From Leptolyngbyaceae cyanobacterium (GTDB lineage Bacteria; Cyanobacteriota; Cyanobacteriia; Phormidesmidales; Phormidesmidaceae): a stretch of DNA of 28,874 nucleotides. Below the pieces are notes generated by a model. The model had not been told where the DNA came from. It ran no database searches and was given only the letters and a program-made list of their open reading frames with translations. Where the stretch lies: positions 1-28,874 of the forward strand of contig CBDHHL010000054.1 in assembly GCA_965263355.1 (NCBI GenBank). Reading direction: 5' to 3'. Shown here in pieces: positions 4,471-28,368 of this stretch. The position numbers were made by a program, and so were the translations under genes. Positions within the stretch are counted from its first letter, which is position 1. The number at the start of each line of letters is the position of its first letter.

Positions 4471-7400
4471 TTAAGGGATTTTTGCGATTGACTGTTCGAC
4501 GGCATGCTGGGCCTGATGGCTTAACGATTGAGCACGGGCGCTCAGGGACTTATAATCGCCGATTGTCTTCTTTAGGAGTTTGTAGAATTCCTGTTTTTGC
4601 TCTTGTATTGAAGCACTTAGAACAAGCAAGGCTTTTGCAACTGCTACATCGTTGGGATGGTCTACTTGTTGGGCAGCTTGGTTTGAGATCGCAGCATACC
4701 GTTGGGCTGCACCACGCTCACCATGGGCCAGGGCAAGTTCACTAGCGTGACTAGTAACAAAAACAAGTTTGCGCTGGGCATCTAGCTGCTGAAGCTGCTG
4801 GATAGTCTGCTCGAGCAGCACATTTGCATTGGCATCGTCCGCATAGGTATGAAGTGCAATTAGGGCTTCTGCGAACGTGCCCTCACTGCCAGCGGGTAGC
4901 TGACCAGAAAGCTCTAACAAAGCTTGAGCATCGCTCACGTTTGGCTGATGCTGGTCCCAGCCAGTCATCACCAACTGAAGCAGCGCATAACTCTGAGGCA
5001 TAAATTCCTGGCGACTGCGGTTGATCTGTAGGGACTTTTGTAAATAAATCCGCGCTTGCCCATAGTTACCGCGATGACGTTCAACACCGCCTAATCCTGT
5101 AGCGATGTCAGCAAGAACCAAGCCTAATCGATCAGCTAATGTCTGAGCTTCGAGCAAGATTGCTTCAGCTCGCTTCATATCACGCTCGATTTCAGCCAGA
5201 CAGCATCCAGTTGCGGCCAGACTCTTAGCTTGAAACTGTGGACTTGGGGGTAAATCCTCTAAAGCTTTGAGGGTTTGAGCCTGCACGGTTTTGAGATGTC
5301 CCCGCTCATAGTTAAAGATATTTAGCGTGTCCTCAGCGATGACTTGAGCTTCGGACATTGAAAGGTTGATGGCATCTGTCAATAGCTGCTGTAGTTGCAC
5401 TTCTAGACTGGCCACTTCATCAGGAGCAACACCGGCAAATGCTCTAGCCCTTAGTAACTGGGCTGACAACAACAAACGATCCGAACTGGGCAGATGGTTG
5501 CAATGCACCAGTCCCTGATTTACAAGGCGAATCACATCTTCATAGGCAAATAAACGTAGACTGCGGGCGGCGGCGGCTGTACTGGATCGTGCGGCCAGAC
5601 CATGGTTGCCGGACAGTCCCGCATGATAGGCAACTTGACTAGCCAGATCGTCATCAATGGTTTGAGTTTCTAACGTTTTGGCCAGCTGGCCGTGAATCAA
5701 TCGTCGGCGCGGTTGAGATAGTTGACCGTAGGCGGCCTGCCGAACCAAATCATGGACAAAGTCATAGTTTCCCTGGTCTTCGATAGATTGCTCTGGTGTC
5801 GGACGCACAATTTGCTGTTGTTCCAACTGCTCCATAGCAGTTAAAAATTGCATGGGAGGGTAGCTCGCAGCTAGAGCCAGGGTTTCTGGATTAAAGTGAC
5901 GCCCGAGAGCTGCAGCCCAAGGTAATAGATCTCGCGCTGCACCATCTAATCGCTGTAGGCGATCCTCAATTAACCCAGTCAAATCGTTGGCAGCATCTAA
6001 TGTGCTGGAACGGACAACTTCCAGGGCAAATAAGGGATTGCCACCACTGTCGATATATATATCTTGTAGTTGCGATGGGCTGGCTGACTGTTGTCCCAAT
6101 ATCGGCTGTACCAACAACTCGATAGCGTCAGGAGAGAGTGGGGGAACCGGAACTTCTTGCAAACGATTGGCTCGCCGCAACGACTTGACCAGAGTATGGG
6201 CTGCGGTGTTGTCTTGGAGTTCAGGCAGCCGAGCAGAGCAAGCAATTCGCAACGCTCCCTGACCGAGTAAACGAAACACGTAGTGCAGCAGGTTTGCGGA
6301 GGCTTCGTCTAACCAGTGGATATCGTCAAAGATTAGCAGTAGAGGCTTTTCAGTACTGGCGACTTTACTCAGCGTCTGGACAACGGCATCAAGTAACTGG
6401 CTACGATCGCGAGGCTGTTGTTGAACGGTAAAGAATTCATTTAGAGTCGGAAATTCTTCAGGGGGAAACGACGCCCGCAACAGATCGATCCACACCCCAT
6501 AGGACCGCAGCTGCTCAGCCCCAAATGCACGTCCCCAAGAGGGTTGCCAGTGATGCTCCAGGGCAGAATCCGCTAACGCTTCTAGCAAGCAAGTTTTACC
6601 AATGCCCGGTTCACCCGTTAACAGTAGTACCGACTCAGGAGTGGCTAGCAACCACTGTTCAAGGATTTCCAGCAGGTCTTCTCGACCAACAACGGCGGAC
6701 TTAGGTTGCAAAGATAATGCAACTGGCGGCGGCGCTTGATCTTTGGATGGCTCATCTATGGCATCCTCAGCCATTAATAGCCGTTGATAGATCTCAGCTG
6801 TTGCCGGGCTGGGATTCACCCCTAGCTCCTCTTGGAGTGTGGTCATGCACTGGTGATAAAGCTGCAGAGCTGTTGCCCGATCGCCACTTTCGCCATGCAA
6901 TGTCATCAGAGTTTGATAGCTGTTCTCATCCAACGGAGCAGCCTGCAGCCACTGCTGTCCGGTTGAGATCGCACGTGAGGTTTCCCCCAGCCCTTGCAGC
7001 AGCTGAGTGATTTGGGTTAAAGCGCCTACGTACTGCTGTCTAAGCCGTTCCTGTTCAGCATAAATCCACTCGGCGTCGCAGTCAGGCCAGAGATCGTCCT
7101 GATAGGCATTCAGTGCTATTTCTAAAGCGTTAACAGCCGCAGTACCTGCTTGATTTTTGGCCCTTTCAAGGGCATCTTCGAACACTTCGACATCTACTTC
7201 ACAGGGACGTTGCGGCTGCCACTGCAGAGTTTGCTTTGTAACTGTGAGCAGCTGCTCAATAACGGGATAATTGTGACGCAAATGATGCAGCTCTTTACGC
7301 AGATTCGTACGAGCCTGGCCTTCAGCAATATCGGGCCAGAATTGGCCAGCAATGTGACGACGGGCTTGGGGAGCCTGACGATGCAAAATTAGATAGGCGA

Positions 7401-7500
7401 TTAGCTGCTGCGATCTCAGCCGCATTCCTGTCGCCATCGTCCCGTCCACCATCAGACGAAAATTACCAAGGAGTGCGATCTGTAGGGTCGGTACTGTCAT
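4471..7500 (-). CDS. SARP/BTAD + STAND (AAA_16-like) ATPase + TPR transcriptional regulator
   Basis: N-terminal wHTH (LLGNFRL, RTNLRKELHHLR), BTAD (PLDENSYQTLM, LQEELGVNPS), Walker A GEPGIGKT, Walker B LIFDDIHW, GGNPLF, FVHDLVR; ATG at 7500. Confidence 0.9.
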   Translation of the reverse strand: MTVPTLQIALLGNFRLMVDGTMATGMRLRSQQLIAYLILHRQAPQARRHIAGQFWPDIAEGQARTNLRKELHHLRHNYPVIEQLLTVTKQTLQWQPQRPCEVDVEVFEDALERAKNQAGTAAVNALEIALNAYQDDLWPDCDAEWIYAEQERLRQQYVGALTQITQLLQGLGETSRAISTGQQWLQAAPLDENSYQTLMTLHGESGDRATALQLYHQCMTTLQEELGVNPSPATAEIYQRLLMAEDAIDEPSKDQAPPPVALSLQPKSAVVGREDLLEILEQWLLATPESVLLLTGEPGIGKTCLLEALADSALEHHWQPSWGRAFGAEQLRSYGVWIDLLRASFPPEEFPTLNEFFTVQQQPRDRSQLLDAVVQTLSKVASTEKPLLLIFDDIHWLDEASANLLHYVFRLLGQGALRIACSARLPELQDNTAAHTLVKSLRRANRLQEVPVPPLSPDAIELLVQPILGQQSASPSQLQDIYIDSGGNPLFALEVVRSSTLDAANDLTGLIEDRLQRLDGAARDLLPWAAALGRHFNPETLALAASYPPMQFLTAMEQLEQQQIVRPTPEQSIEDQGNYDFVHDLVRQAAYGQLSQPRRRLIHGQLAKTLETQTIDDDLASQVAYHAGLSGNHGLAARSSTAAAARSLRLFAYEDVIRLVNQGLVHCNHLPSSDRLLLSAQLLRARAFAGVAPDEVASLEVQLQQLLTDAINLSMSEAQVIAEDTLNIFNYERGHLKTVQAQTLKALEDLPPSPQFQAKSLAATGCCLAEIERDMKRAEAILLEAQTLADRLGLVLADIATGLGGVERHRGNYGQARIYLQKSLQINRSRQEFMPQSYALLQLVMTGWDQHQPNVSDAQALLELSGQLPAGSEGTFAEALIALHTYADDANANVLLEQTIQQLQQLDAQRKLVFVTSHASELALAHGERGAAQRYAAISNQAAQQVDHPNDVAVAKALLVLSASIQEQKQEFYKLLKKTIGDYKSLSARAQSLSHQAQHAVEQSIAKIP

Positions 7501-7614
7501 CAATACCTGCTTCTCCGTGGAATGATTCGCTTAGGGAACGCTGGAGCAACGAACGGGCAACTACCGTCTTTCTACTGTTGAATCATACCAATCCAAAGGA
7601 ACTTGGAGGTTATG

Positions 7615-8736: not shown

Positions 8737-8875
8737 CGCCTGCCGCAAAAAGTTTGAATTCCTGAATTCGTCCCGTTCACAGCGGTTGCGATCGCTGATG
8801 GAAACGATTGTCTAAATTTTCCCCGTGTTTATTCCCATTATCCGTTCATTTACCCGACATAAAGGAGAAACAATC

Positions 8876-10402
8876 ATGGCTTACAACACCATTTCCATGC
8901 CAACAGAACTCAAAGTTGCTTCAACAAATATCAGCCCTGACCAGGGGCTCGTGCTCTCATCCTATTGGTTTGGTCTCCATGACGGTAGCTTTGATTATTT
9001 CAACGCTGGAGAAGCGGCCTCTATCGCCCTGGAAGGTCTTGCCGAAGACGCATCGACGGGCGACCCGCAAGGACAGCAACCCCCTGAGATCCTCGAAGCA
9101 TTGATCGCTGGTGGTACTGACTTCAGTCTCGCACCCACCGAAACTCTCGCAGATGAATTTGCTGCCAGTGATGCCGCACAGAACAATGGCTATCAGGCAA
9201 TACTACTAAACGACAACTTAAATCGAGTCCCGATTGTGCACGATTTCCCAGGTGAAACAACGGAGTTTCAATTCACTGTTCCCGATTTTAACGCCACGCA
9301 GCATGGTTACTTTAGCTATGCATCCATGCCATTTCCCACCAACGATGCCTTTATTGGTAATGATGATCCAATGGAAGTGTCGTTGTTTGATGCAGACGGT
9401 AACTTTGTCGGTGCTAACTTTGTGGTTGTCGGTAGTGATGTCTGGGATGCAGGCACCGAGGTAAACACCGAGAGCCCAGATGATGTGCCCTTTGCTTTGA
9501 GTCAGCTATTTAAGGGACCCGATGAAAATGGTGTTGTTCATAAGCACGAACCATTAATGCCACCGGGTGCAGGTGGCGTCGTTGATTTTGAGCTAAACGG
9601 GGAGACCCCTTTTGCCAATTCCGACTTCACAGCTCCCAACTATGAGGTGGCCCAGATTACGGTCTCGGGTATTTACCAAGGTACTCGCCAGGGCGATCTC
9701 ATTGTGGCCGGTGTTGGTGATGATGAAATTAACGGCAAAAGAGGAAACGATCTGATTGCAGGAGGCCTAGGCAATGACCTTATCCAAGGAGGACGAGGCC
9801 ACGATATTCTCAGAGGTGACTTAAACAATCGTGACCCTCAATCGGATATCGCAGGAGGCGATGACATTATCCACGGTGGCAGAGGTAACGACCGTATTGG
9901 CGGAAAATCAGGTAATGACACACTGTACGGAGATCAGGGCAAAGACGCCATCTGGGGTGATGCCGGGGATGATCTACTCGATGGTGGACGCGGCAAGGAT
10001 ACTCTCATTGGCGGTATCGGTAGCGATCAGCTGGTTGGGGGTCGAGGAAAAGATATCCTTACTGGCGTAGATCCTAGTGCTCAGGCGGCAGGCTTTGGTG
10101 AGTTTGACCAAATGACTGGCGGTAAGGGCGCAGATCGTTTCATTTTAGGCGATAAAAAACAAACCTACTACCTTGGCCAAGGACTGGTGGATCATGCCGC
10201 TATCTTCGACTTTTCTCTGGCCGAAGGTGACGTCATTCAGCTTCACGGCGAAGCCGCTGACTACAGCTTAGGGGCCTTTACCGAAGGCGAAATTTCGGGC
10301 GTCACCATCGTCACAGGCGGCGACCTAGTTGGAGCCGTGGCTGGCATCTCACTGGCTGACCTCAGTCTGAGCGATACAGCTGCGTTTGAATTTGTCGGTT
10401 AA
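8876..10402 (+). CDS. Spondin-domain protein with RTX/hemolysin-type Ca-binding repeats
   Basis: Spondin_N-like motifs (LAEDA, SYASMPFPTNDAFIG, WDAGTEVN) followed by many GGxGxDxL/I nonapeptides; AAGGAG RBS before ATG 8876. Confidence 0.85.
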   Translation: MAYNTISMPTELKVASTNISPDQGLVLSSYWFGLHDGSFDYFNAGEAASIALEGLAEDASTGDPQGQQPPEILEALIAGGTDFSLAPTETLADEFAASDAAQNNGYQAILLNDNLNRVPIVHDFPGETTEFQFTVPDFNATQHGYFSYASMPFPTNDAFIGNDDPMEVSLFDADGNFVGANFVVVGSDVWDAGTEVNTESPDDVPFALSQLFKGPDENGVVHKHEPLMPPGAGGVVDFELNGETPFANSDFTAPNYEVAQITVSGIYQGTRQGDLIVAGVGDDEINGKRGNDLIAGGLGNDLIQGGRGHDILRGDLNNRDPQSDIAGGDDIIHGGRGNDRIGGKSGNDTLYGDQGKDAIWGDAGDDLLDGGRGKDTLIGGIGSDQLVGGRGKDILTGVDPSAQAAGFGEFDQMTGGKGADRFILGDKKQTYYLGQGLVDHAAIFDFSLAEGDVIQLHGEAADYSLGAFTEGEISGVTIVTGGDLVGAVAGISLADLSLSDTAAFEFVG

Positions 10403-10426
10403 GTCATTCACTCAACATCACTACAA

Positions 10427-10786
10427 ATGGAGAACCTTCCCATGATTACCAATACGAAAAAAATTCTTACACTTGGTCTGAGCCTGGGCTTGCTGGCCAT
10501 GATTGCTCAACCTATTCGATTAGAGCCTCGTCAGCCAGATCAGATTGTTCAAAATGGCTTGCGTCTCAATGGTCTACGCCTAAATGGCCTGCGCTTAAAT
10601 GGTCTACGTCTCAATGGTCTGCGTTTGAATAGTCCAGCCTCCAATCAACAGGCTGTGAATCTATCTGAAGAGACTCCACCTGATTGGTTAAACCCCTCTA
10701 TTACAACCGTTCAGCTGCCTGGTCATAACAACGTTGACAGCATTCTGCTCGAAGACGGTAAACTCTCCTTTCGGTCAGCTGAATAG
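10427..10786 (+). CDS. Small, probably exported protein with (NGLRL)5 repeat
   Basis: KK plus hydrophobic N-terminal segment (signal peptide-like); five exact NGLRL repeats; lies between two co-oriented genes. Confidence 0.75.
   Translation: MENLPMITNTKKILTLGLSLGLLAMIAQPIRLEPRQPDQIVQNGLRLNGLRLNGLRLNGLRLNGLRLNSPASNQQAVNLSEETPPDWLNPSITTVQLPGHNNVDSILLEDGKLSFRSAE
10553..10627 (+). repeat. 5 x 15-bp coding tandem repeat (NGLRL)
   Basis: aatggcttgcgtctc / aatggtctacgccta / aatggcctgcgctta / aatggtctacgtctc / aatggtctgcgtttg; all differences are synonymous. Confidence 0.95.
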
Positions 10787-10804
10787 GTATCCACAAGGGT
10801 AATC

Positions 10805-11566
10805 ATGCAACGCTTTTACTGGCTTATACTACTGGTTTTAATTGGGGGTGGTGTGATCGCCCACAATCGATCAACCCACTCTCAGCCCGTCATCGAAAAC
10901 GTGGATGCTATCTTAACGACTTTTGATGAGCAGGGGCAATCGCGCACACTGGCTATCAAAGATGTACAGCTCGACCCTGACGATAGGGCACAAGAAATTT
11001 ACTTATATACTGTGCTCCATCAGGGAAACAATGGGCAGTGGCACAACCTGTGTTTGCCAGATGTTAAGGGCGTTGCTAAAGCCTTACCCTTGGCTGGACG
11101 ATGGAATCACACGGGGGCACATATTGATGACGACAATATCACCTTTGCCTGCACCAATGGTGCCCTCGCTAAATGCGTTCGTTGGGGGTATAAACCTTGG
11201 AAAACCATCCAAGGTGAATCATTGCGAGATTATCATCAAGCCTGCACCCGGCTAGTACGGGCTGATTACTGTGGGGACGGCATCAGCCATACCCAAGAAG
11301 GCACTTCCATCGACGTATACGATCGCCTCGGATTACAACAACGTACTCAGCAAAGTGGCATGACGTTTGAAGCCGCTTGGGATGCCAACGGGGCGATTCA
11401 ACTCAATCACACCCGCTTCCCAGACACGATTGAAACATTGCAGCAGGCTTGCCCTGAAAAGCTATCAGCAAGCCTGCCAGCAGAGGCTACCAATCGTCAA
11501 ACCTTGGGTAAGTACCTGAAGCCAATACTGTTCAACGATTCATTCGTTCCACTCGAAATACCGTAA
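10805..11566 (+). CDS. ADYC-domain protein, probably exported and Cys-rich
   Basis: FACTNGALAKCVRWGYKPW, HQACTRLVRADYCGDG, FEAAW motifs; N-terminal hydrophobic segment. Confidence 0.85.
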   Translation: MQRFYWLILLVLIGGGVIAHNRSTHSQPVIENVDAILTTFDEQGQSRTLAIKDVQLDPDDRAQEIYLYTVLHQGNNGQWHNLCLPDVKGVAKALPLAGRWNHTGAHIDDDNITFACTNGALAKCVRWGYKPWKTIQGESLRDYHQACTRLVRADYCGDGISHTQEGTSIDVYDRLGLQQRTQQSGMTFEAAWDANGAIQLNHTRFPDTIETLQQACPEKLSASLPAEATNRQTLGKYLKPILFNDSFVPLEIP

Positions 11567-15836: not shown

Positions 15837-16019
15837 TGTTCACGTCCAGGACGGTCATTTGTCCGTAGAAGAATCTACAGGTTTTAAATTGGACGTGGTT
15901 TAGAGAGCATCGGACGGGCAAGAAAGAACTATGCCAAGCTTTACACCACGCGGTGAATTATAGCGCCATATTCACACATATGAGGACAACTTACAGAAAG
16001 CGTGAATATTCTCATAGTC

Positions 16020-17315
16020 GTGATTACATTTAGCCTCAAAACCTCCATTTGATTACAAAATTCTCTAGACCCTGGCACCTAAACTGAGACAACAATAGTC
16101 AACACACCAGATAGCAACAGCTTTAGATGATTACAAGTAACTTTAGAACTCAAGCTCGATTACAAGTAATTCTAGAACCTAGACCCTAAAAATAGATCGT
16201 ACAAACCGTTGAAGTGATTACATTTAGGGGCGATAACGGCTGTGATTACAGGTTTTCTCTAGAACCTGAGCCCAAAGTTGATTACAACAAAGCCTAGTCC
16301 CTCGACCTGATTACAAACGTTTCTAGACCTCAGGCTTGATTACACAATTACTCTAGAACCCGAGCCCTAGAAAATCAGTCAGAAGCCTCATTGAAGTGAT
16401 TACATTTAGAGCTGATAGTGGCTGTGATTACAGGTTTTCTCTAGAGCCTGAGCCCAAAGCTGATTACAACATAACCTAGAGCCTCGACCTGATTACAAAT
16501 GTTTCTAGAACCTGGGCTTGATTACATGATTACTCTAGAGCCTAGTACCTAAAGTATGGTGTTGATGGGGAGTTAAAGGTGTTGCTTGGGGTCCCTCCGA
16601 GTTCCCCAACCCCCCTGGGCAGGGCCGGAACGCCGCCCTACAACCCAACGTACTGAGTTATTCCTAATGGCATTAAGTAAGGAGTTACGGCGAGGTCGAT
16701 TATATGTATCCCGGACTCGTTTCGATAACAGATTTAGGGCATCAAACTCACATCATGCTGCTATTGCTTATGAGCCCTAAGGTCGCTCATTACTAGATTA
16801 CATATGCTTTCTAGACTCTAGATCTCAAAGTTGATTACAAAAGGCTCTAAAGGCTAGACCTGATTACAGGTATCTCTAGAACCTGGTACCTGTAATCACA
16901 CTAGAACATTCCAAGAAGGCGGCATTTAGAAGCAAAACCCTAATCTTGATTACATTCTTGTTCTAGAGCTCAATCCCAAAGTGATTACAGAATTACAAAC
17001 ATACAGTTCTGATTACATCAATACTCTAGAGCCAGGCCCCTTCAGTGATTACATCCATGGTTCCCAAAGGGATTGATTACACGATTTATCTAGGGTCTGG
17101 CCCCCATAATGATTACAAAGTAGCTCTAGAACATGGACCGGAAAATTCTAGGTCCCCTACCCCAAACTCTCTAGACCCCATACCCAAAATTTTGATTGTT
17201 GTTATGTGATATTTCCCGACAACAAAAGAGTCTGATTTTTTTAGCCCTCTCAGAAGCTAAGCCATGATTACAAATTTTCTGTTATCAGAACAATCCAGGC
17301 AAGATTTTGTAATCA
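16020..17315 (+). repeat. Iteron-like array, consensus TGATTACA-N6-7-TCTAGA; putative replication origin
   Basis: About 24 direct GATTACA copies counted by eye, mostly spaced about 29 or 36 bp; two inverted copies (16891, 17308); a roughly 182-bp higher-order duplication (starts near 16209 and 16391). Confidence 0.85.
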
Positions 17316-17577: not shown

Positions 17578-19449
17578 GTGACATTGGCTCTACCAAATCC
17601 ATTTGAATACGTGCAAGAACGAAGCAATCGATTTCTTGCACTATTTCCCCATCGTCATGATTACATCTACGCGAACCATCCATCACCGGGTAAACGCCCC
17701 CAATGGCAAACGGAAAGTCGGCATCCGTTATCAGACCGGCTGATTGAACAGGGTACTTATCTCTATGGTGTGCGATTTGGGAAAGAAACCCAGTACGCCA
17801 TGGTGGATATTGATGTTGGCAGTGCGTACCATCCCAGGCGGGATCCCATCGCGTTTCAAAAACTGACCGAGGCACTAGAACCCTTAGGTCTAGTCTCAAC
17901 GATCACCTGCACCTCATCCGATAGTCAGGGCCTGCACCTGTATTTTCCATTTTCAGAATCACTGACAGCTTGGGAAGTGGGCAGTGGCATCACATTACTT
18001 CTGGAAAGCCAGGGATTTAAGGTTACGCCTGGTCAACTTGAAGTCTTTCCGAATGCTCGGCTGTACACCATCGAAAGTACACCGAATCTATTTAATGCGC
18101 ACCGGCTCCCCCTACAGCGTGGGTCGTATTTACTGAATGATGATTTAGAACCGATCTGGACTGACCAGACTACCTTTGTCGATCAGTGGAGACAATGCCA
18201 GAGTCGCAACATCCTAAGTAATGAGACACTGCAACGGATCATCAAACAAAAAAAACGGCGCAGTTATCGTCTCTCGAATAAGGCTGACAAGTTTCTAAAC
18301 GATCTCAATGCTGAAATTGAGCAAGGTTGGACTGACCATGGACAAACGAATCGATTGCTAGGACGTATCACCATGCGGACCTATGTATTTCACCATGTGA
18401 TGTACGGTGGTGAACCGCTAACCGGGGACAGTCTGATCAAAGAAGTTCTAACTGTTGCAAAAGCGTTACCTGGTTACGAGTTGTGGTGTCGTCACCAGCA
18501 TGAAATTGAAGACCGTGTTTCAGAGTGGGTCAGCTGCATTGAGAAAAGTCACTACTTTCACTATGGTGAGCAGTTTGGAAAATACAAATCTAAAAAGGAG
18601 ACGCCAGAATCTGAAGATACTGATCTCAGTTGGAATCAACAGCAGAGTCAAAAGACTAAAGATAAAATTCAAGCTGCTCTTAAAGAACTCACAGATAAAA
18701 ATGAACTTCCAGAACAGGCAACTGCTAGATTCAATGCCCTCCGAAAATTTGGCATCGGGGGTGGGTCGCTATATCGATATAAAGACCTTTGGCATCCACT
18801 CTGGAAATCACAGAAGAAATCCCCCCAGACCCCCCAATTTAATAATGAATCTGGACAGTTTGGCCAGGCTAACGCGCCAAACTGTCACAGCTCCACAAGC
18901 TTATTACAAGAGATAGATGGTAATAATAATAAAATCAATGGTTCTAGCGATCTGAAATCTGTTGCACCTCAACCAGAGGGTGGTAATCCCAATCGAGAAG
19001 GGATTCAGCGTATCCGAGAGATGTTGTCGAAGGCTCAGGTCACTGTCGATTTGCAGGCCGCTCAGGAGGTGATAGAGGCTGAGGAGATGCTGGCTCAGGA
19101 GTCTAGAGCAGCTCACCTGCAGCAGATGGCTTACTGGCTAACGTTGGATGACCCGATTTTGATGGCAGAGGCCCTGGCATGGTTACAGCAACAGCCGCCT
19201 GAGCTATGTGCTGAGTTGTTGGATACGAAGCTGTCAGATATACAGCAGCAGTCGTTAGAGACGATTGTGGAGATAGTAGAGCAGCTGCAGCGGTTGGATT
19301 GGGGTCCAAGAAGGATAGGGGAGGAGTTGCGAAGCTTCTTCGAAGCGGCAGGGCCAACGCAATTTTCCAAATCCTCCCTCGCCCATCTCACAGCTGAGAA
19401 ACGACAACAGTGGTTATCTTATTTACTTTCTCTTTCTGACACGGGGTAA
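17578..19449 (+). CDS. AEP primase-like protein, putative plasmid replication initiator
   Basis: AEP motif I (MVDID) and motif II (SSDSQGLHLYF), LEVFPN; lies directly downstream of the repeat array. The Rep role is inferred. Confidence 0.7.
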   Translation: MTLALPNPFEYVQERSNRFLALFPHRHDYIYANHPSPGKRPQWQTESRHPLSDRLIEQGTYLYGVRFGKETQYAMVDIDVGSAYHPRRDPIAFQKLTEALEPLGLVSTITCTSSDSQGLHLYFPFSESLTAWEVGSGITLLLESQGFKVTPGQLEVFPNARLYTIESTPNLFNAHRLPLQRGSYLLNDDLEPIWTDQTTFVDQWRQCQSRNILSNETLQRIIKQKKRRSYRLSNKADKFLNDLNAEIEQGWTDHGQTNRLLGRITMRTYVFHHVMYGGEPLTGDSLIKEVLTVAKALPGYELWCRHQHEIEDRVSEWVSCIEKSHYFHYGEQFGKYKSKKETPESEDTDLSWNQQQSQKTKDKIQAALKELTDKNELPEQATARFNALRKFGIGGGSLYRYKDLWHPLWKSQKKSPQTPQFNNESGQFGQANAPNCHSSTSLLQEIDGNNNKINGSSDLKSVAPQPEGGNPNREGIQRIREMLSKAQVTVDLQAAQEVIEAEEMLAQESRAAHLQQMAYWLTLDDPILMAEALAWLQQQPPELCAELLDTKLSDIQQQSLETIVEIVEQLQRLDWGPRRIGEELRSFFEAAGPTQFSKSSLAHLTAEKRQQWLSYLLSLSDTG

Positions 19450-19573: not shown

Positions 19574-19714
19574 ACGCAAAAACCATGAGATCTCACCCCT
19601 GAAACATAGCCCACCCAACGTTTTTCATATACATAACCTGCACCACCAAAACTTTAAATCTTGATTTTATTCCTTAAGAGAAAAGAGCAAGAGGGGAAGA
19701 GAGAAAAGAGCAAT

Positions 19715-20524
19715 TTAGAGCCCTGGGGGCGCACAACTCACTCGAAAACCGATAATGTTGTTGCGGTTGCCGGGCGATAGTAGTTGCGCGAGGCGGAGCG
19801 GCAATACCTAGGAAAGTAGAACCACGAGCCGCCGCGTCGCACCCGATATGCCTCTGAATTCTCGGTCAGCCAGGGGCTTCCATCCTTTGGAGCCTGATCA
19901 TAATTGCTATGCCAGTGGTCCGCACACCATTCCCACACATTGCCGTGCATATCGCATAGGCCATAGGCATTGGCTAGACCAAAGTGTGTTACATCGACAG
20001 TCTCTTCCAGATATCTCCCCTTTGGACCATTGTTATAGGTAGATGTCGCACGATAGTTGGCCACCTCATCCGTCAGCGTCTGTCCAAAGTAAAAAGGTGT
20101 CTGAGTGCCTGCACGACAGGCATATTCCCACTGGGCCTCGCTGGGCAGTCGTGTAGGGCCTTCCTGTATGGGCCGCTAGCCGTGCACAAAACTCCTCTGC
20201 CTCGTACCAGCTCACCCGCTCCACCGGGCGCTTGGCTCCCTTAAATTTAGCTGGGTCAGAGGGCAGTTCTATATGCACCTGATCCATGGTCACTACTGCC
20301 TGCCACTGGGCCTGGGTCACCGCATAGCGCCCCATTAGAAAGGTGGGAACAGTTACCCTATGCTGTGGCCCCTCTGAATCGCTACGCTGGGGTTCATCCT
20401 CTGGAGAGCCCATCAGAAACTCACCACCGGGCACCAGCACCATATCTAACCCAATGCCATCGCCCAGGTCTTCCGTAAAATATTGCGCTGTATCCGTACG
20501 CCGACGAATCGTAAGTTCAGCCAT
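19715..20524 (-). CDS. DGR target 1: stand-alone FGE-sulfatase/CLec-fold protein (about 269 aa; two frameshifts as given)
   Basis: Joined frames give [62 protein letters not shown]; +1 near 20152 and -1 near 19773. Confidence 0.85.
19723..19836 (-). repeat. DGR variable repeat VR1
   Basis: Aligns to TR with 10 substitutions, all at TR adenines, plus a 1-bp deletion. Confidence 0.93.
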
Positions 20525-20578
20525 AGGGGTCTCTACAAACGCTACCGCATTCTAACCTACGTTCCTGCCTCCCTGCTG

Positions 20579-20619
20579 CCCAGGCTCTGCCTGGGTACAC
20601 CCCCCAGAGGCTCTGCCTC
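20579..20619. repeat. REP-like double mini-hairpin element (cccaggc-tct-gcctggg ... gaggc-tct-gcctc)
   Basis: Two perfect stems with 3-nt loops; related copies at 20699-20737, 23521-23560 and 24272-24293. Confidence 0.7.
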
Positions 20620-20627
20620 CAAACAAG

Positions 20628-20839
20628 AATCCGCCAACTCTTCGGTTTCCCTACCAAGCTAGCGGACCCGGTTTTATTTTTGGATGCCCTCTCAGTTACA
20701 GGCTCAGCCTGAACTGGATATCCTGAGGCTCTGCCTCTAATACAGACATCGCCGGAGCAGGTCTGGACTCTTCTGAGGTACGCCCGACAGATTCCCATCT
20801 GCCAGTTCTGACCAGGCCATTGCTGACCGTTGAAGAGTG
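20628..20839 (-). ncRNA. Putative structured 3-prime spacer of the DGR template RNA
   Basis: Segment directly 3-prime of TR; minus-strand stems need G-U pairs (ctggcagat/atctgtcgg, gatgtct/gggcatc, gtccgctagct/agttggcggat). Confidence 0.6.
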
Positions 20840-20954
20840 CTGGGGGCGCACAACTCACTCGAAAACCGATATTGTTGTTGCGGTTGCCGGGTTGATTGTT
20901 GTTGCGCGAGGCGGAGCGGCAATTCCTAGGATTGTTGATCCACGAGCCGCCGCT
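20840..20954 (-). repeat. DGR template repeat (TR), 115 bp
   Basis: AAC/AAT-rich copy of the target C-terminus ([37 protein letters not shown]); starts 8 bp after the RT stop; carries A at every position where the VRs are substituted. Confidence 0.95.
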
Positions 20955-20961
20955 CTGCGGC

Positions 20962-22053
20962 CTACCCCACAGATAGGTTATCAGCCTGATCATCTAGCTC
21001 TCGCACAAATACCAATTGATCAAAGATTTTTCGGCGTAACCGATGGGTATCCCCATGGCTCAGGTGCGCTTCCCAGCTACTCAGTCGCTGCACCAGGTCT
21101 TCGAGCCCCACTTCACCCCTGGCATACAGCCCCTGTAATAGCTTCATGCGTTTTCTTGCCCGCTGCAAATTATCATTGCGTACACGGATGCGATCGCGCA
21201 GCACCCGAAACCCGACAAAATTGGCTCCATACCGGGTTTCAAATAGCTGACTCTTATGCGGATGCAGTCTCAGCCGCAGGGATGCTAAATACTCCTCCAT
21301 CGCTGCCCTAGCATCCGCTAGCACCGACCACTCATCCCCAAAGGCAACAAAATCGTCAACATATCTCAGATAGCGCCGTAGCTTTAGCTGCTCTTTGACA
21401 AAATGATCAAATGGGTTCAAATACAGATTGGCAAAAAACTGACTGGTCAAATTCCCAATGGGCAGACCCCGGCGTCTTTCAACCGGCGTTAGCAAGTCAT
21501 CCCCAGGGAAATACTCAACCACCGGCATCTGAGGGTTACTGGCATCGATAATTTTATCAATCAGCCATAGCGTATCCGGGCACTTCAGCTTACGCCGCAA
21601 CAATCCTTTGAGAATCTCATGATCGATTGAGGGAAAATACTTTGAAATGTCACACTGCAAGCAGTAACGATAGCGACGCGCCAGCCCCACAAATTTCGTC
21701 AGTGCCCGATGGGTGCCATAGCCCAATCGATTGGCATAGGTATGGCCAATCAGCGTTGGCTCCAGCAGCGGTACGATCACATTACACAGCGCATGGTGCA
21801 CCACCCGATCCCGATAGGGGGCTGCCGAGATCATCCGCACCTTGGGATCGTGAATATAAAAAGTGTAATACTTGCCAGGTGTGTAGGTCTTGTCCCGCAG
21901 TTCCCGTTGCAGGCTCAACAAAGAGCGCTCCAGATGGTAATTAAACTCCAGCACATTGGGCCGATAGCGTTTGCCCTTTTGGGCCTTGCGAGAGGCTACT
22001 AGCAGATTTTCAAAGGTAATAATCTGGGGCCACAGGTTACCGTAGCGCTTCAT
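20962..22053 (-). CDS. DGR reverse transcriptase
   Basis: [24 protein letters not shown]-type [18 protein letters not shown]; 363 aa with no maturase or endonuclease domain; intact ORF. Confidence 0.96.
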
Positions 22054-22457
22054 GCCAGCGCAGGCTTCAGAATCGGCTTAGGCTGTGGCTTGCGAGGGGG
22101 CACAGTTGCTTGCCTAGACTGCTGTTGCTTGATCCACCCACCCAGGTCGGTCCCAATGCCATCAATCAGCTCGCTCACATAGGTATAGCGCTGGGCAGAC
22201 AACAAATTAAACTCAAACAGCAACCGAGTCTGGTAGCGCAGCACATCCAGCTTGCTATTGAGCGTCTGCAGTACATCCAGCTTATCTTGTTGATACTGGG
22301 CCACAACTAGCGCTTCTAGCAGGTCATAGAGCCCATTGATCGTCCGATCCCCTAGTTGAAACCGATGATTGCGTGGCAGCTTTTGCAATATCGGCACGTA
22401 CCACTTAATCAGATCATAGGTTTTCTGAATAATTGGCAGCTCTTTTCCCTGGCTCAT
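22050..22457 (-). CDS. avd: DGR accessory variability determinant (four-helix bundle)
   Basis: [37 protein letters not shown] overlap with the RT start. Confidence 0.92.
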
Positions 22458-22641
22458 TTAGTCACTGAGGTAGATGTCTGTTTTTGAAACTACTCTAATC
22501 CCATCGCTTTCAGATCAAGATTTATGCCCCCGTAAGCATTGCGCAACACTTAAATACTTTTCTTGAAGAATATAAACCTATCCGTCTCTGCTTATTTTTA
22601 TTTCTTTAGAGAAAAGAGCAAGAGGGGAAAAGGAAAAAGGA

Positions 22642-23495
22642 CTATGGAAGAGAGCCTGGGGGCGCACAACTCACTCGAAAACCGATATCGTTGTTGCGGT
22701 CGCCGGGTAGATAGTAGCCGCGCGAGGCGGAGCGGCAATACCTAGGATTGTTGAGATCCACGAGCCGCCGCGTATCACCCTGCTGGCCTCTGAATCCTTT
22801 GTCAGCCAAGGACTTCCATCCTTTGGAGCATCATCATAATTTTCATGCCAGTGGTCAGCACACCACTCCCATACATTTCCATGCATGTCGTACAGGCCAA
22901 AATCATTGGCCACCTCGAATAGCCCAACAGGTGTCGTCTCTTTCGATACTCCCCTTTTGGCCCATCTCCATAGGAACCAGAGTAAGTCTTATTATTGATT
23001 TCCCGATCCTGCCCACAGTAGTTCGCCAGGTCCGTCGTAATCGTTGCCCCAAAGTGAAACGGCATCTTGGTACCTGCTCGACAGGCATACTCCCACTGCG
23101 CCTCGCTAGGCAGTCTATAGCGCCGTCCTGTATGTATCGACAGCCGTGCACAAAACTCCTCCGCCTCATACCAACTCACCTGCTCCACTGGGCGATCCTC
23201 ACCCTTAAAGTTAGATGGCTCCAGCGGCATCTCCATATTTACCTGGGGCAGCCCCGCCACTGCTCGCCACTGGGCCTGGGTCACCACATACTTCCCCAGA
23301 AAGAATCCAGACACCGTCACCTCATGCTGTGGCCCCTCCCACAAACCTATCCACCTCCGTCCCTGGTGAGCCCATCAGAAACGTGTCACCGGGGATCTGC
23401 ATCATCCACAGGGTGATGCCACCGGGCAGTGCCTCATCGTAGTAGGTCACCCGCTGCTGCCGTTTATTAATGACTACATTCACCGCCTGGACCAT
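22642..23495 (-). CDS. DGR target 2: stand-alone FGE-sulfatase/CLec-fold protein (about 284 aa; three frameshifts as given)
   Basis: ATG 23495 after a GGAG RBS; same FGE motifs; ends [13 protein letters not shown]; frameshifts near 23341, 22942 and 22754. Confidence 0.85.
22656..22772 (-). repeat. DGR variable repeat VR2
   Basis: 9 substitutions versus TR, all at adenines, plus a 2-bp insertion near 22754. Confidence 0.93.
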
Positions 23496-23568
23496 AGTAA
23501 TTCTCCCTCTCTCTTCGGCCCCAGGCTCCGCCTGGACGGACACACCTGAGGCTCCACCCCCAGCAATC

Positions 23569-23979
23569 TCAATCCCTTTCTTCTACCCAATTTTCCAAAT
23601 CAACACCAGGATACGCCCGAAAATCATCCAAATTATTAGTCACCAACGTCAAACTCAAACTCCTGGCATGACTAGCAATCAGTTTATCTAACGCATCCCG
23701 TTTGCGGTCGGGCACCGCCGCCCTAACGTCAGCATAGACACCCGCCGCCACCTGATCAAAGGGCACGGATGGAATCAACTGCATTAAAGCAACCAACGCC
23801 TGCTGATTTTGCTGACGAGTCTTATCACCACTTACCCGTACCCCATACTCCAGCTCAGCTACTGTAATCGCAGAAATCACCACATCCCCCTGACGACACT
23901 CAGCAAAACGTCGAGCCACCGACGGTGGCTGATGCTTCATCAGATAGATGCAGATATTCGTATCCAACATATACTTCAT
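23569..23979 (-). CDS. vapC: VapC PIN-domain toxin
   Basis: YMLDTNICIY, ISAITVAELEYG, DKLIASHA, LVTNN; ATGA overlap with the antitoxin gene. Confidence 0.93.
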   Translation of the reverse strand: MKYMLDTNICIYLMKHQPPSVARRFAECRQGDVVISAITVAELEYGVRVSGDKTRQQNQQALVALMQLIPSVPFDQVAAGVYADVRAAVPDRKRDALDKLIASHARSLSLTLVTNNLDDFRAYPGVDLENWVEERD

Positions 23980-24209
23980 AGCGCTTCTCGATCCTGAGTT
24001 CCCTGGTCCGGGCGTCCCGCTACCATAAAGTCTGCTGAAAACGCAGCAAATCGTTCCATTACATCCAACAGCGGAGGACCGACAGGACGAATAATCAGCA
24101 CGTCCCCCTGGCGCTCAATCTCATAGTCAATATCAAGCCGATCAAACTGTAACTCCTTAGGAATCCTTATCGCCTGAGAGTTACCACTCTGAAAAACACG
24201 AGTCCGCAT
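23976..24209 (-). CDS. vapB: VapB antitoxin (AbrB/SpoVT fold)
   Basis: TRVFQSGNSQAIRIPKE and IERQGDVLIIRP. Confidence 0.93.
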   Translation of the reverse strand: MRTRVFQSGNSQAIRIPKELQFDRLDIDYEIERQGDVLIIRPVGPPLLDVMERFAAFSADFMVAGRPDQGTQDREAL

Positions 24210-24232
24210 CAGTGTTTGCCTTAATCACCACT

Positions 24233-24252
24233 TGTATACACAAGTATATACA
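24233..24252. promoter_or_regulatory. Imperfect palindrome upstream of vapB; candidate autoregulatory operator
   Basis: TGTATACACAAGTATATACA, about 24 bp upstream of the vapB start. Confidence 0.5.
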
Positions 24253-24350
24253 GATTTTACATCCACACTCAGTCCCAGGCTCCGTCTGGGGACAAGAGAA
24301 GGAGATACCCTGAGCGAAAAGAGCAAGAGGGGAAGAGTATAAAGAGCAAG

Positions 24351-26264
24351 CTAGAGCCCTGGGGGCGCACAACTCACTCGAAAACCGATATGTCGTAGTC
24401 GCGGTTGCCGGGTAGATAGTCGTCGCGCGAGGCGGAGCGGCAATACCTAGGATTGTTGATCCACGAGCCGCCGCGTAGCACCCGTACAGCCTCTGAATCC
24501 TGCGTCAGCCAAGGGCTTCCATCCGTTGGTGCCCCCTTATAATCTTCATGCCAATGGTCCGCACACCATTCCCACACATTGCCATGCATGTCGTACAGCC
24601 CAAAGTCATTCGCCACCTCAAAACATCCCACAGGTGTAGTCTCTTGCGATACCGTCCCTTTGGTCCATACCCATAGGTATAGCTGCCGTCGTAATTAGCA
24701 ATATCCGTCGTCAACGTCGCCCCAAAGTGAAACGGCGTTTCGGTCCCTGCCCGACAGGCATACTCCCACTCTGCCTCACTCGGTAGCCGATACTTCCGCC
24801 CCGTATACACCGACAGCCGCGCACAAAACTCCTCCGCCTCGTACCAGCTCACCCGCTCCACCGGGCGATTATCTCCTTTAAAGCTTGACGGGTCCGACGG
24901 CATTTCTACATTTACCTGGGTTAGCCCTGCTACAAACCGCCACTGGGCCTGGGTCACCGCATACTTACCCAGCCAAAACTCAGGGACCGTCACCTGATGC
25001 CGTGGCCCCTCAGAGCTTTGACGCTCAGTTTCGTCCCTGGGCGACCCCATCCTAAACGTCCCTCCAGGCAATGCCACCATCTCCAGGGTCAACCCATCCG
25101 TCAGTGGCTCCACCCACTGCCGTCCCTGCCGCCGCTGCCGGGTCACCACCCACTCCACCGACTGTCGCCCCGGCAATAGCCGCGTCAGCAGATTACCTCT
25201 CTCTCGCTTCTCTAACCGCCCTGTCCTAAATTCAAAAGTCTCTAATCTATAGTCTGCTGACCTGGCGCAGCCCGCTCCGCAACCTCTAGCTGCACCTCTG
25301 CTACCGTCACCATTTCCTGCTTTAGCTCTGGCCAGGACTCATCCACAGCGGCCTCATCGGGCACTGTAGCCGCATCCAAAATCTGTGCCGTCACAAACTC
25401 CAGCGTCTGAAACTCGGGCAGCTCTGCTCTAATCCCCTCCAAACTATCCGAATCTGCAGCTACCGATTGAGGCCCGTTAAACGAGACAGCCTCAGTTGCA
25501 TCCACACCAGCACCAGCCGTCTCCCCTGAGAGAATTCGATTCTTATCTCTCAGCTCTCGCTGCAGCATCGACGGTAGTTGTAAAGACTTCCCAGCCACCT
25601 CATAGGTCTTCTCCACCCGCTCCGCTGCTAGCTGCTGATTACTCCGCTGCACATCGCTCACCAGCGACGCATACTCAATTAACTCAGGATAATCCGACAG
25701 TTGCCCCCTCAGAGTTTCGGTCACCTGAGCTAACCGGGCCATCTCCGCCCGACTGAGTAACTCACGGCCCACCTGTTCTCCCTGCGCCATACTGGTCTGA
25801 AAACGGTCGGCGATCTCGGTAACTACTTTTTCTTTCTCTGCTGACCCCAAATACACCATAGCCGCCCACTGCTGCGTCTCTAACTCACGATCCGTGAGCT
25901 GGGCATTTTTGGCCAAATAGCCCACATAGCTAATCAACAGATTCGCCACATCCCGCTTACGCTCATCCGTAAACCTATCAGAGCCATGCGCTAAAACATA
26001 GGCCCGCACATCCGTATCCATGGCGTACAGCTCATAGCCCACCTGGGAGAACAAATCTGACAACAGCAGATCCACCTCCGCCATCCACGGCACCTCTCGC
26101 AAAAACTGATGACGCAGATAGCCCACCAACTCCGGCGTCAATACCAACGGCAACGCCGCATGGCACACCAGTTCGTAGTAACCGGGCTCAAACCGCTCCA
26201 CAAAGCGCTGCACCCGGCGCTCGGCCCGCTCCTTACGTTCGTCTAGTGTCAGCCCCTCAGCCAT
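24351..26264 (-). CDS. DGR target 3: multidomain protein (vWA-associated helical N-terminal domain, acidic linker, C-terminal FGE-sulfatase/CLec), about 637 aa; three frameshifts as given
   Basis: ORFs 25242-26264, 24505-25176 and 24374-24631 join with single-base corrections near 25244 (giving [15 protein letters not shown]) and 24646 plus the VR indel; ends [11 protein letters not shown]. Confidence 0.8.
24359..24475 (-). repeat. DGR variable repeat VR3
   Basis: 9 substitutions versus TR at adenines plus a 2-bp insertion near 24392. Confidence 0.93.
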
Positions 26265-26282: not shown

Positions 26283-27401
26283 CTACAGCACCTGCGGTTG
26301 CAACCCACGGATCACATCAATGGCATTACTCAGCCCATCATCATCCATTTGAAACATCCGCACAAGATTAGCGACAATCTCGGCAGAGCTCCCCGACCAT
26401 CGCTCCACTGGCACCGGGTTTAACCAGGCACATAGCTGAGTTCGCTGCCGCAACTGTCGCAAAAATCGCGTCGTTGCTCGAATTCTTTCTAACCGTCGAT
26501 ATCCCCGAGAAGCTCCACAATCACTCACCACCAAAACACTGGTATTGGCATCACAGGTAGCCAGCACCGTTGCCAGGTCCACCGGCTGAGTCATAAATGC
26601 ATCGGTGTAAACATAGTCCGCAGGCACATTTTGAAAATAACAAACCGTCACCTGCTCTTCCGGCAAACCGCTTTCATAAAGGGCCGTATCAACTACCTCA
26701 CGGGTAAGCGAATGCAACGGCATCATCGAACCATTTTGATCAATAAACAACACCAACTGCGCCCGGTTATACCCCCGCCGCCGCATCACCGGCTCTAAAT
26801 AAAACCCCTGCTGGGCCGCCCGCTGCACCGTCGCCGCCACATCTAAAATATCCGCCGGCCCCTCCGCCACCGTACGCCGCAGATAGCGCCAGCCATAGCT
26901 CATAGACCGCCTCGACACCGGCAAATAGCCCTGCAAATCCACAGCCTGAGCACTCTCAGCTAGCGTAAAGGGTGCCCGCACGGGTTGAGCAGCCGCATCT
27001 ATGGCCGCACTCTCTTCTTTTTGGGTAATCGCCTGCGGTGGGTCTTGCCTAGGCATCGATGACGGCAACGGCTCCACCGCAGCAGCCGGGGCAGGCTCAC
27101 TATCGTCATCCACAAACCTCACCGACGCACTGCTGGCAGCCATCTCTTCTAGGCCCTTTTGCCACAGGGGCTCAAACTGCACCCGCTCATCCTTAGAGCT
27201 ACACCAGATCAGCACCAGCGCCTGCTTTAGCCCATCGAGATCCGGGAACTCCTCAGACAACGGTGCCAACGGACTGGCCGCATCACTCACCAGGGCCACC
27301 CCCGCCAGCAGCTCCTCCACCCCCAGGTTAAAACCGCTCTGGCGCAGCCGCCCAAAGGTCTCAAATATCAGGTCTGGCAAATCCTCTCGGGTCATGGTCA
27401 T
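26283..27401 (-). CDS. vWA-domain protein (CoxE-like, MoxR partner)
   Basis: LDVAATV, MIDAS-like FIDQNGSM, VVSDCGA, WLNPVP; overlaps the moxR stop. Confidence 0.88.
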   Translation of the reverse strand: MTMTREDLPDLIFETFGRLRQSGFNLGVEELLAGVALVSDAASPLAPLSEEFPDLDGLKQALVLIWCSSKDERVQFEPLWQKGLEEMAASSASVRFVDDDSEPAPAAAVEPLPSSMPRQDPPQAITQKEESAAIDAAAQPVRAPFTLAESAQAVDLQGYLPVSRRSMSYGWRYLRRTVAEGPADILDVAATVQRAAQQGFYLEPVMRRRGYNRAQLVLFIDQNGSMMPLHSLTREVVDTALYESGLPEEQVTVCYFQNVPADYVYTDAFMTQPVDLATVLATCDANTSVLVVSDCGASRGYRRLERIRATTRFLRQLRQRTQLCAWLNPVPVERWSGSSAEIVANLVRMFQMDDDGLSNAIDVIRGLQPQVL

Positions 27402-28368
27402 GAAGAAGCCGCAAACCCAGCCCGACGCCAGTCGCCCCGCAGCTTAAACAACAGCTCCTTGTAGGGCAGTTCACCTGCCTTGGCCTTTAGCGCCTCCGCC
27501 GCATAGGGCTCGTTGGCAAAGTGGGCCAGGGCCCCCAACCAATCTAAAAATTCACTGGTCCCCGGCAGCTTGGTTAACCCCTTCTGACCCCGAATCGCCA
27601 AAAACTCATCCAACGCCGCATCCACCAAGTCTGCTGACGGGGCAGGTTTTACCTCTGCTTCTCCCTGTTCAGCCATCTGCTGAAAGTGGATTTCCACAAT
27701 CTTTTTCAGATCATCCCGCTCGGGAAACTCAATAAAGTAGTACACACATCGCCGTAAAAACGGAGCAGGCAAATTTCCTTTCTCTTTATTACTGGTGATG
27801 ATCACAATGGGTGGGTACTTAGCCGTAATCGTTCTACCGGTCTCCCGCACCCGAAACGCATAGGGTTTCTCCAACAGCGCCAGCAAATCATTGGGAAAGT
27901 CCAGGTCCGCCTTATCAATCTCATCGATCAGCACCACCGACGGGCAATCATTCCTAAACGCCTGCCCCAACTCCTTAAATTCTAGATAATTCATTGACAT
28001 TCCTCGGATTAGCCGTACGTTGGCCCTCCCTTGCTTTGGCATTCACATCCTTTCAGCAAATTGACATCATGCAGCCGCAGCAGTGCATCGTATTCGTACA
28101 ACCCCTCCTGATACCGTGTAGTCGAGCGAATATTCCATCGATAAAGCGGATACCCCAGCTCGTGGGCCACCGCCGATGCCAGTCGCGTTTTGCCACAGCC
28201 CGCCTCACCCTCCAGCAACAAAGGCCGCTTTAGAAAAATCGATAGATTGACCGCCTTGATTAACTCCTCAGAGGGTAAGTAAGGCTCTGCTCCCGGACAA
28301 TCAGCATGAATAGCCTCGGGTTCAGTAGGACGGTTCTCCGAATTACCAGTAAAAAATCTCATAAGCAC
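27398..28368 (-). CDS. MoxR-family AAA+ ATPase (frameshifted near 27990-28050 as given)
   Basis: RPLLLEGEAGCGKT and YDALLRLHD in one frame; VVLIDEIDKAD, IITSNKE and LPAPFLRRC in another. Confidence 0.88.

Follow-up and report, generated by a model that had tools for sequence, protein, structure and literature searches.

A pyrimidine repeat array beyond the variable repeats of a cyanobacterial diversity-generating retroelement, a likely part of its landing site

How the mutated cDNA of a diversity-generating retroelement (DGR) finds and enters its target is described as an unresolved step of retrohoming in the available text of PMC5703328 and PMC12875486. The target site of phage BPP-1, as set out in the portions at hand of PMC3240598 and PMC5703328, consists of a (GC)14 tract, a 21-bp sequence known as IMH (initiation of mutagenic homing) and a GC-rich hairpin or cruciform, and the accessible part of one survey reports inverted repeats in 34% (127/372) of DGRs (PMC5758913). 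Here we analyse the DGR carried by a 28,874-nucleotide stretch of DNA from a Leptolyngbyaceae cyanobacterium (GenBank assembly GCA_965263355.1, contig CBDHHL010000054.1, positions 1 to 28,874; hereafter the window). The element is complete and lies on the minus strand, with Avd, a reverse transcriptase (RT), a template repeat (TR) and three target genes of the FGE-sulfatase/C-type lectin (CLec) fold, each ending in a variable repeat (VR), and AAA and vWA genes adjoin it. Our subject is a tract of pyrimidine-rich repeats that lies just beyond each VR.

The pyrimidine array beyond the variable repeats

Three exact copies of a 19-nt polypyrimidine motif are found in the window, at 19680-19698, 22611-22629 and 24316-24334, as the first-pass annotation of this DNA had reported. 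They begin 24, 26 and 24 nt past the end of TR/VR identity, which agrees with the 24-26 nt given there, and they lie beyond the target-gene stop codons at 19715-19717, 22642-22644 and 24351-24353; the reported absence of the motif after the TR was likewise borne out. No further match with three or fewer mismatches occurs in the window (100 shuffles: mean 0.01, none reaching 3). The conserved element is longer than 19 nt, being a tract of 35-47 nt that starts right after the stop codon and on which a sequence profile of the array reaches its maximum upstream of the 19-mer; the 19-mer corresponds to the last two and a half array units in the version carried by the window lineage. Exact identity over 19 nt is a local feature, with five copies in two sister genomes matching at 17-18 of 19 positions and other relatives mostly at 12-16. 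The arrays of the window are as follows.

19676..19713, minus strand: pyrimidine repeat array after VR1, holding the 19-mer; profile score 29.1 at 19689-19712
22607..22641, minus strand: pyrimidine repeat array after VR2, holding the 19-mer; profile score 30.7 at 22620-22643
24314..24350, minus strand: pyrimidine repeat array after VR3, holding the 19-mer; profile score 27.8 at 24325-24348

For comparison with related elements we used the best 80 of 276 related RT loci, in which the ends of TRs and VRs were located by their peptides. Eleven loci had no TR by the rule used, and 9 of 103 VR-like ends were dropped for having too many non-A mismatches or being too short, leaving 94 current targets (VRs) in 55 loci, which are not independent as some loci are near-identical. 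As an untrained score we took the highest pyrimidine fraction of any 28-nt stretch containing 7 or more C, with a threshold of 0.85. An array by this score is present after 84 of the 94 VRs and after none of 69 TRs, and of 829 other stop codons in these loci 2 are followed by one. The arrays have a median length of 39 nt and contain 3-7 units in 92/94 VRs, with self-match peaks at lags of 7, 8, 15 and 16 (0.54, 0.57, 0.55 and 0.52, versus 0.42 in shuffled sequence). Units are mostly spaced by 7 or 8 nt and share a grammar of a purine, two or three C or Y, and then CTYT. The 19-mer is the window lineage's form of a clade-wide pyrimidine array found after nearly every VR target.

Such a pattern could have been a passenger, copied along with the CLec-IMH module during target duplication or conversion, in which case identity would reflect recent copying. 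Arrays of one DGR are indeed more alike than they are to those of another DGR in the same genome, and within the window VR1 and VR3 share 19 of 24 nt before the motif while VR1 and VR2 share 22 of 40 (AT-rich) after it. The latter figure also corrects the statement that sequence beyond the motif is unrelated, as only the other pairs are as low as 12-13/40. Copying accounts for the exact 19-nt identity but not for the clade-wide pattern. Fourfold-degenerate RT sites are 62-64% identical in sister species and 28% identical (median, 78 relatives) in the rest; synonymous sites of the RT are saturated and yet the array pattern is kept, which rules out neutral inheritance. The unit grammar extends into the non-cyanobacterial hosts of L062, L067, L069 and L070 (L numbers denote loci of the comparison), a profile of the array reaches a sensitivity of 0.86 at 20 bits when cross-validated across loci, and the Leptothoe trio already shows an array substitution rate well below that of flanking and synonymous sites. 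We regard the passenger explanation as very unlikely. By these comparisons the array behaves as a target-linked cis element under selection, and to this extent the proposal of the first-pass annotation, an alternative cis-acting target signal, is upheld, while the triplex and RNA-pairing forms in which it was also cast are not.

The triplex form holds that H-DNA opens the duplex beside the IMH, and the strong purine/pyrimidine strand asymmetry over 35-47 bp would suit it. Mirror-repeat arms, however, measure 5.3 nt versus 5.5 nt in shuffles (4-6 nt in the window copies), and purines spaced by 7-8, 15 and 23 nt hold the pure pyrimidine runs to 15.1, below the 17.6 of shuffled sequence. With no mirror symmetry and a tract interrupted by purines at regular spacing, this mechanism is extremely unlikely.

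VR3 alone has a dispersed palindromic repeat about 25 nt past the motif (24275-24290), which VR1 and VR2 lack. Short copies of this palindrome are found near target genes elsewhere in the window (20579-20594 and 23520-23535) and also in L142 and at L001:5941, in the last case as a 7-bp hairpin that immediately follows an array.

The array as a marker of current and remote targets

The first-pass annotation had suggested that the motif could predict remote targets. In five related whole genomes (38 Mb), the lineage consensus has 7 matches, each directly after an FGE VR, versus 0 for the reversed control, and the exact clade-wide pattern has 11 of its 12 matches at FGE gene ends. With one mismatch allowed, the clade-wide pattern falls at FGE ends in 26 of 54 cases, and the 28 matches elsewhere compare with 33 for the reversed control, which puts roughly half of the matches down to background; 11 non-FGE sites of the clade pattern were inspected and showed no VR-like peptide. 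The exact 19-mer occurs in 14 metagenome stretches, none of them beside an FGE-type VR, and is ruled out as a universal marker. Prediction of remote targets is thereby upheld in part only, and best for the lineage consensus (7/7 at VR ends). A dispersed repeat of the cyanobacterial short tandemly repeated repetitive (STRR) type was also considered. Such repeats occur in many copies scattered in intergenic DNA whatever the gene, and the concentration of the lineage consensus at VR ends and of the exact clade pattern at FGE ends rules this candidate out.

From 75 Pfam matches in the five genomes we recovered 54 rows for FGE ends. The profile gives 15 bits or more to every one of the 18 ends that have no non-A mismatch to a TR; 13 of these are in the training set or duplicate it, and the 5 new ones score 15.2-35.0. 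Among the 31 rows with at least 12 TR mismatches, a class that includes one duplicate row and one decayed TR, 25 score below 0 bits. The motif is therefore not common after non-target genes, the outcome on which the annotation had staked its reading, as these non-target FGE paralogs and the rarity of the array after other stop codons both indicate. Outside the VR list, the profile at 20 bits or more has 3 matches in 2.0 million strand positions, and by eye all three are missed VR ends.

At L145, L124, L118, L129, L115 and L107 we found FGE genes with an IMH-like junction and an array and no matching TR in the genome, which are probable orphan targets; L145 adjoins a further RT and a decayed TR. 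In L142 the palindrome is inserted inside the array of three VRs on one contig, and the non-A mismatches of these VRs, 3, 3 and 8 in number, mostly do not coincide in position. The interruption fits a loss of targeting, as a single event and with an unassembled TR being possible.

Hairpins, primer pairing and a putative landing pad

The first-pass annotation described the motif as standing in for a GC hairpin. For the window lineage this is correct: DNA folding of the three copies gives z-scores of +0.05 to +1.85 on both strands, our hairpin rule returns none for all three, no GC stem is common to them, and no BPP-1-type GC-rich inverted repeat (7-10 bp, GRNA loop, 4-34 bp after the VR) is common to the window VRs. 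As a general rule it fails, since 69 of the 94 related VRs have an array and then a hairpin. Downstream of the array, a Watson-Crick GC hairpin follows 53/94 VRs (87/829 controls by the same rule) and a G-A-mismatch zipper, by a pattern written after the data were seen, follows 16/94 (1/829 controls); neither is present in 25/94. Zippers such as those at L041:7411, L047:6380, L071:7478 and L030:7529 combine tandem G-A mismatches with a GNA loop. The sequence GCGNAGC, which the available text of PMC13037366 describes as a very stable DNA mini-hairpin that is much weaker as RNA, is found on the coding strand in 40/94 VRs and on the complement in 1/94, compared with 16 and 31 of 829 controls. Zipper hairpins can form on the coding strand only, which suggests that the hairpin may be recognized as single-stranded coding DNA rather than as a cruciform.

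Hairpin-poor elements form two separate, fully supported RT clades among hairpin-bearing ones, namely the window trio and a Nodosilinea-type quartet, as read from a drawn quick tree of cyanobacterial RTs only. VRs in both clades still match their own TRs, and those of L002 follow the L002 TR at positions where the sister TRs differ. Judged by this tracking, targets without a hairpin still appear to be rewritten. The array is retained where the mini-hairpin downstream of it has been lost.

The spacer 3' of the TR folds such that its IMH* pairs with a purine-rich segment. In the window this segment would, by analogy with the available account of BPP-1 (PMC5703328), provide the primer. The features concerned are the following.

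20765..20838, minus strand: TR-downstream spacer; IMH* at 20832-20838 pairs with the purine-rich 20765-20773, the predicted primer stem
19717..19723, minus strand: IMH junction of VR1; 6 contiguous pairs with the predicted primer end, one of them a wobble
22646..22656, minus strand: IMH junction of VR2; 2 contiguous pairs in register, an imperfect match
24353..24359, minus strand: IMH junction of VR3; 6 contiguous pairs with the predicted primer end, one of them a wobble

Across the related loci, pairing of the primer end at the junction favours the VR over the TR in 83 of 93 cases (mean 6.2 versus 1.4 contiguous pairs), where the VR register is the best of nine offsets and the TR was given its own best. 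This supports, by comparison, the primer-IMH pairing that was proposed for BPP-1 in the portion at hand of PMC5703328. The array lies directly 3' of the primer annealing site, at a median distance of 13 nt.

Another explanation holds that the units are themselves repeated weak pairing sites for the purine-rich primer end (AAGAG versus CTYTT), at which an RNA-cDNA hybrid would dock and slide into register. Allowing for wobble, the unit core is complementary to the primer pentamer seen most often (46/63 loci), and at 2 AAAAG loci a T stands at the matching position in 9/9 cores versus about 73% otherwise. In 6 AGGAG loci, by contrast, the position where C is possible holds T in 32/32 cores, and in 2 ATGAG loci the expected A is found in 0/6 cores, so that in 8 of 10 informative loci the units fail to change along with the primer. 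Nor do the arrays show longer locus-specific complementarity to the TR RNA region, with 3/94 in the top 5%. We consider the pairing explanation quite unlikely. A long RNA-pairing site was rejected as well, with complementarity in 3/94 and little identity (9/94) to the region from TR-330 to +260.

We propose that in this clade the landing site of the DGR likely includes the array as a core part, or as its second half. More specifically, it is reasonably probable that it serves as a putative single-stranded landing pad read by a protein just 3' of the primer-pairing IMH. On this view the coding strand would be accessible in single-stranded form, probably while serving as lagging-strand template, and the RNA-cDNA hybrid would anneal to it through two contacts, its cDNA with the VR and the end of its RNA with the first 6-9 IMH bases. 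The unstructured array would be bound by a protein that reads repeats, most likely the RT-Avd complex, and this binding would keep the site open and in register. A GNA mini-hairpin after the array would act as an enhancer in most relatives, and the window lineage would do without it. Reading on exposed single-stranded DNA is suggested because the array lies 3' of the annealing site and because reconstituted BPP-1 homing, in the available text of PMC12875486, prefers the coding strand as lagging-strand template. A bolder version, in which the array rather than the hairpin is the core recognition signal, its 3-7 units are read by the subunits of an Avd pentamer and the GNA or G-A-zipper mini-hairpin is an optional booster, is conceivable but in our judgement doubtful.

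Several observations weigh against the landing-pad proposal. The VR set is not independent and was drawn from the best 80 of 276 relatives. The junction of VR2 in the window pairs poorly with the primer end, the Avd site described in the accessible part of PMC6182149 is on spacer RNA rather than target DNA, and the protein partner of the array is a guess on our part. Six of the 31 rows for FGE ends without a matching TR in the genome score 14-34 bits, so the array can persist without a matching template, which counts against a strict link between array and target. The first unit lies about 3 nt from the stop codon (median; standard deviation 5.8, versus 4.7 when measured from the junction), and the stop and junction anchors can be separated in 5 of 93 cases only. 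A T-run follows the hairpin in 44/94 VRs compared with 10/829 controls, as it would for a terminator. Finally, the array is not a universal requirement. In a survey of 69 plasmid, phage and viral loci, 40 of which yielded 44 VRs, distant phage DGRs lack the tract, and only three ingroup Acaryochloris VRs and two coding-region cases score at least 0.8; periodicity at z>2 in 8/44 VRs versus 3/40 TRs is not convincing, and the VR set contains the three ingroup members and two whose 3' end was mis-set.

Some of these observations would also be expected if the array were an mRNA 3'-end signal of the CLec target genes, acting in pausing, termination or stability with no role in homing, which is the main rival explanation: most arrays begin at the stop codon or close to it, a hairpin and T-run often lie downstream, and the array is kept on six FGE ends with no matching TR. 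Such a signal would not be expected to be rare after other genes and after most non-target FGE paralogs, nor to follow the IMH junction when the stop lies far upstream (L076) or downstream (L037, L067). In L076 the array follows the junction by 7 nt and the stop by 40 nt, and in L037 and L067 it begins inside the coding region; where the two part, the array tracks the IMH junction and not the stop codon. The favoured loop type is, moreover, that of a DNA mini-hairpin. The window copies have no stem with a T-run at the motif, the sole terminator-like match there being a 5-bp stem over the IMH of VR1, and a scan of the window gave 3 promoter-like sites (5.1 in shuffles) and 10 terminator-like sites (5.1 in shuffles, standard deviation 2.0), none of them on the motif. 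An intrinsic terminator, with a GC stem and a direct U-run, is rejected for the motif in the window. Altogether we hold a 3'-end signal to be unlikely, and favour the landing-pad proposal.

A conserved element that marks the current targets of a large clade offers a directly mutable test of target recognition, for which the hairpin-less and still TR-tracking lineages serve as natural controls. Array and IMH junction together help to find remote and orphan targets in cyanobacterial genomes. If the array were the core signal, this would account for the homing of cyanobacterial DGRs to many remote targets and for the lack of a detectable inverted repeat in two thirds of DGRs, and the array would provide a portable tag for retargeting.

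The element in its setting and among known DGRs

The remaining features of the DGR are listed below.

20962..22053, minus strand: DGR reverse transcriptase, 363 aa, intact (PF00078)
22050..22457, minus strand: Avd, 135 aa (PF22296)
20840..20953, minus strand: template repeat, 28 adenines in 114 nt; array absent 3' of it
19715..20524, minus strand: target gene 1, FGE-sulfatase/CLec fold (PF03781), frameshifted in the window sequence
22642..23495, minus strand: target gene 2, FGE-sulfatase/CLec fold (PF03781), frameshifted in the window sequence
24351..25176, minus strand: target gene 3, CLec part (PF03781), which may be the end of a longer vWA-linked gene; frameshifted in the window sequence
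19723..19835, minus strand: VR1, 9 substitutions at TR adenines and 0 elsewhere; one 1-nt gap
22656..22771, minus strand: VR2, 8 substitutions at TR adenines and 0 elsewhere; one 2-nt insertion, absent from short-read contigs
24359..24474, minus strand: VR3, 8 substitutions at TR adenines and 0 elsewhere; one 2-nt insertion

In all three targets the VR forms the C-terminus of the FGE-sulfatase/CLec domain (PF03781), and the 25 substitutions that separate the VRs from the TR are all at adenines, with 0 elsewhere and three small indels. At 20150, 22753, 22938-22943 and 24645 the window sequence probably carries indel errors, and all three target genes are probably intact, because the frameshifts at these positions are absent from short-read contigs of the closest runs; neither run X1 nor run X2 has the 20150 indel of target gene 1 in its contigs. 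A different allele of VR2 is present on a contig of run X2, and 9 of the 10 differences assignable by depth are opposite TR adenines, a comparison made on contigs only, from two samples of one study, in which cross-mapping is possible.

Two Leptothoe/Leptolyngbya genomes encode the closest RTs, at 92-93% identity. With an integrase, ParA/ParB and iteron-like repeats, the window looks like a segment of a cyanobacterial plasmid. The iteron-like direct repeats (16000-17135) lie upstream of a 623-aa open reading frame at 17578-19449 that has no Pfam match, and the two are possibly the plasmid origin and its Rep protein. The AAA gene is split in the window sequence (27398-28368). Between targets 2 and 3 is a PIN-domain gene (23569-24209), and a short open reading frame upstream of it resembles, by eye, its antitoxin. 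Further away are a BTAD-STAND-TPR protein of 1010 aa (4471-7503) and, at 8825-11566, an RTX-repeat protein, a 119-aa open reading frame with five 15-nt tandem repeats (10552-10645) and an ADYC-domain gene. Among related loci, L155, on an Ideonella plasmid, carries two avd genes and two RT genes arranged consecutively, and the RT of L075 is followed by a second TR-like copy, which is truncated.

In its gene content the window element resembles the cyanobacterial CLec DGRs described in the available text of PMC5758913 (Lineage 4), PMC10907252 (clade 5E) and PMC7517822, with RT, Avd, a TR after the RT and several FGE-sulfatase/CLec targets next to MoxR-type AAA and vWA genes; its RT is 62% identical to that of the Pseudanabaena biceps element, listed in Lineage 4 by Wu et al. 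(PMC5758913). Those three papers, in the portions at hand, score only inverted repeats or suggest cis features that are not named. As in BPP-1, the array is a cis sequence 3' of the VR and absent after the TR, the first bases past the TR/VR junction pair better with the spacer-derived primer than those of the TR do, and most relatives have a GC-rich hairpin further on. Unlike in BPP-1, whose record has nothing of the kind between VR and hairpin, a pyrimidine array of 3-7 units follows the primer-pairing bases; hairpins of the clade are short, mostly with 3-nt loops, and typically 40-70 nt from the junction, those of 16/94 VRs contain G-A mismatches and hence are not cruciforms, and the window has no shared hairpin at all. 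The three-base G-N-A loops of the relatives' hairpins (GAA, GTA or GCA) resemble the GRA trinucleotide loops of archaeal DUSEL4, as given in the available part of PMC4372165, where the array is not described; the window lineage differs from DUSEL4 also in lacking a hairpin. The plasmid DGR of Legionella pneumophila is comparable in that the stretch from the VR end to a GC hairpin holds three tandem units of 8 nt (L159:3192-3220), although these units are AT-rich and different in sequence. Two similar units are found in a Prosthecochloris DGR. A pyrimidine array is not described in the accessible portions of PMC5758913, PMC7517822, Dore 2023/2024 (PMC10907252), Pfreundt 2014, PMC8867640 and PMC4372165, the comparison having been made without Arambula 2013, Guo 2014 and Paul 2017. 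The window carries an ordinary cyanobacterial CLec DGR, and what appears to be new is the array, a clade-limited variant of DGR target-site anatomy.

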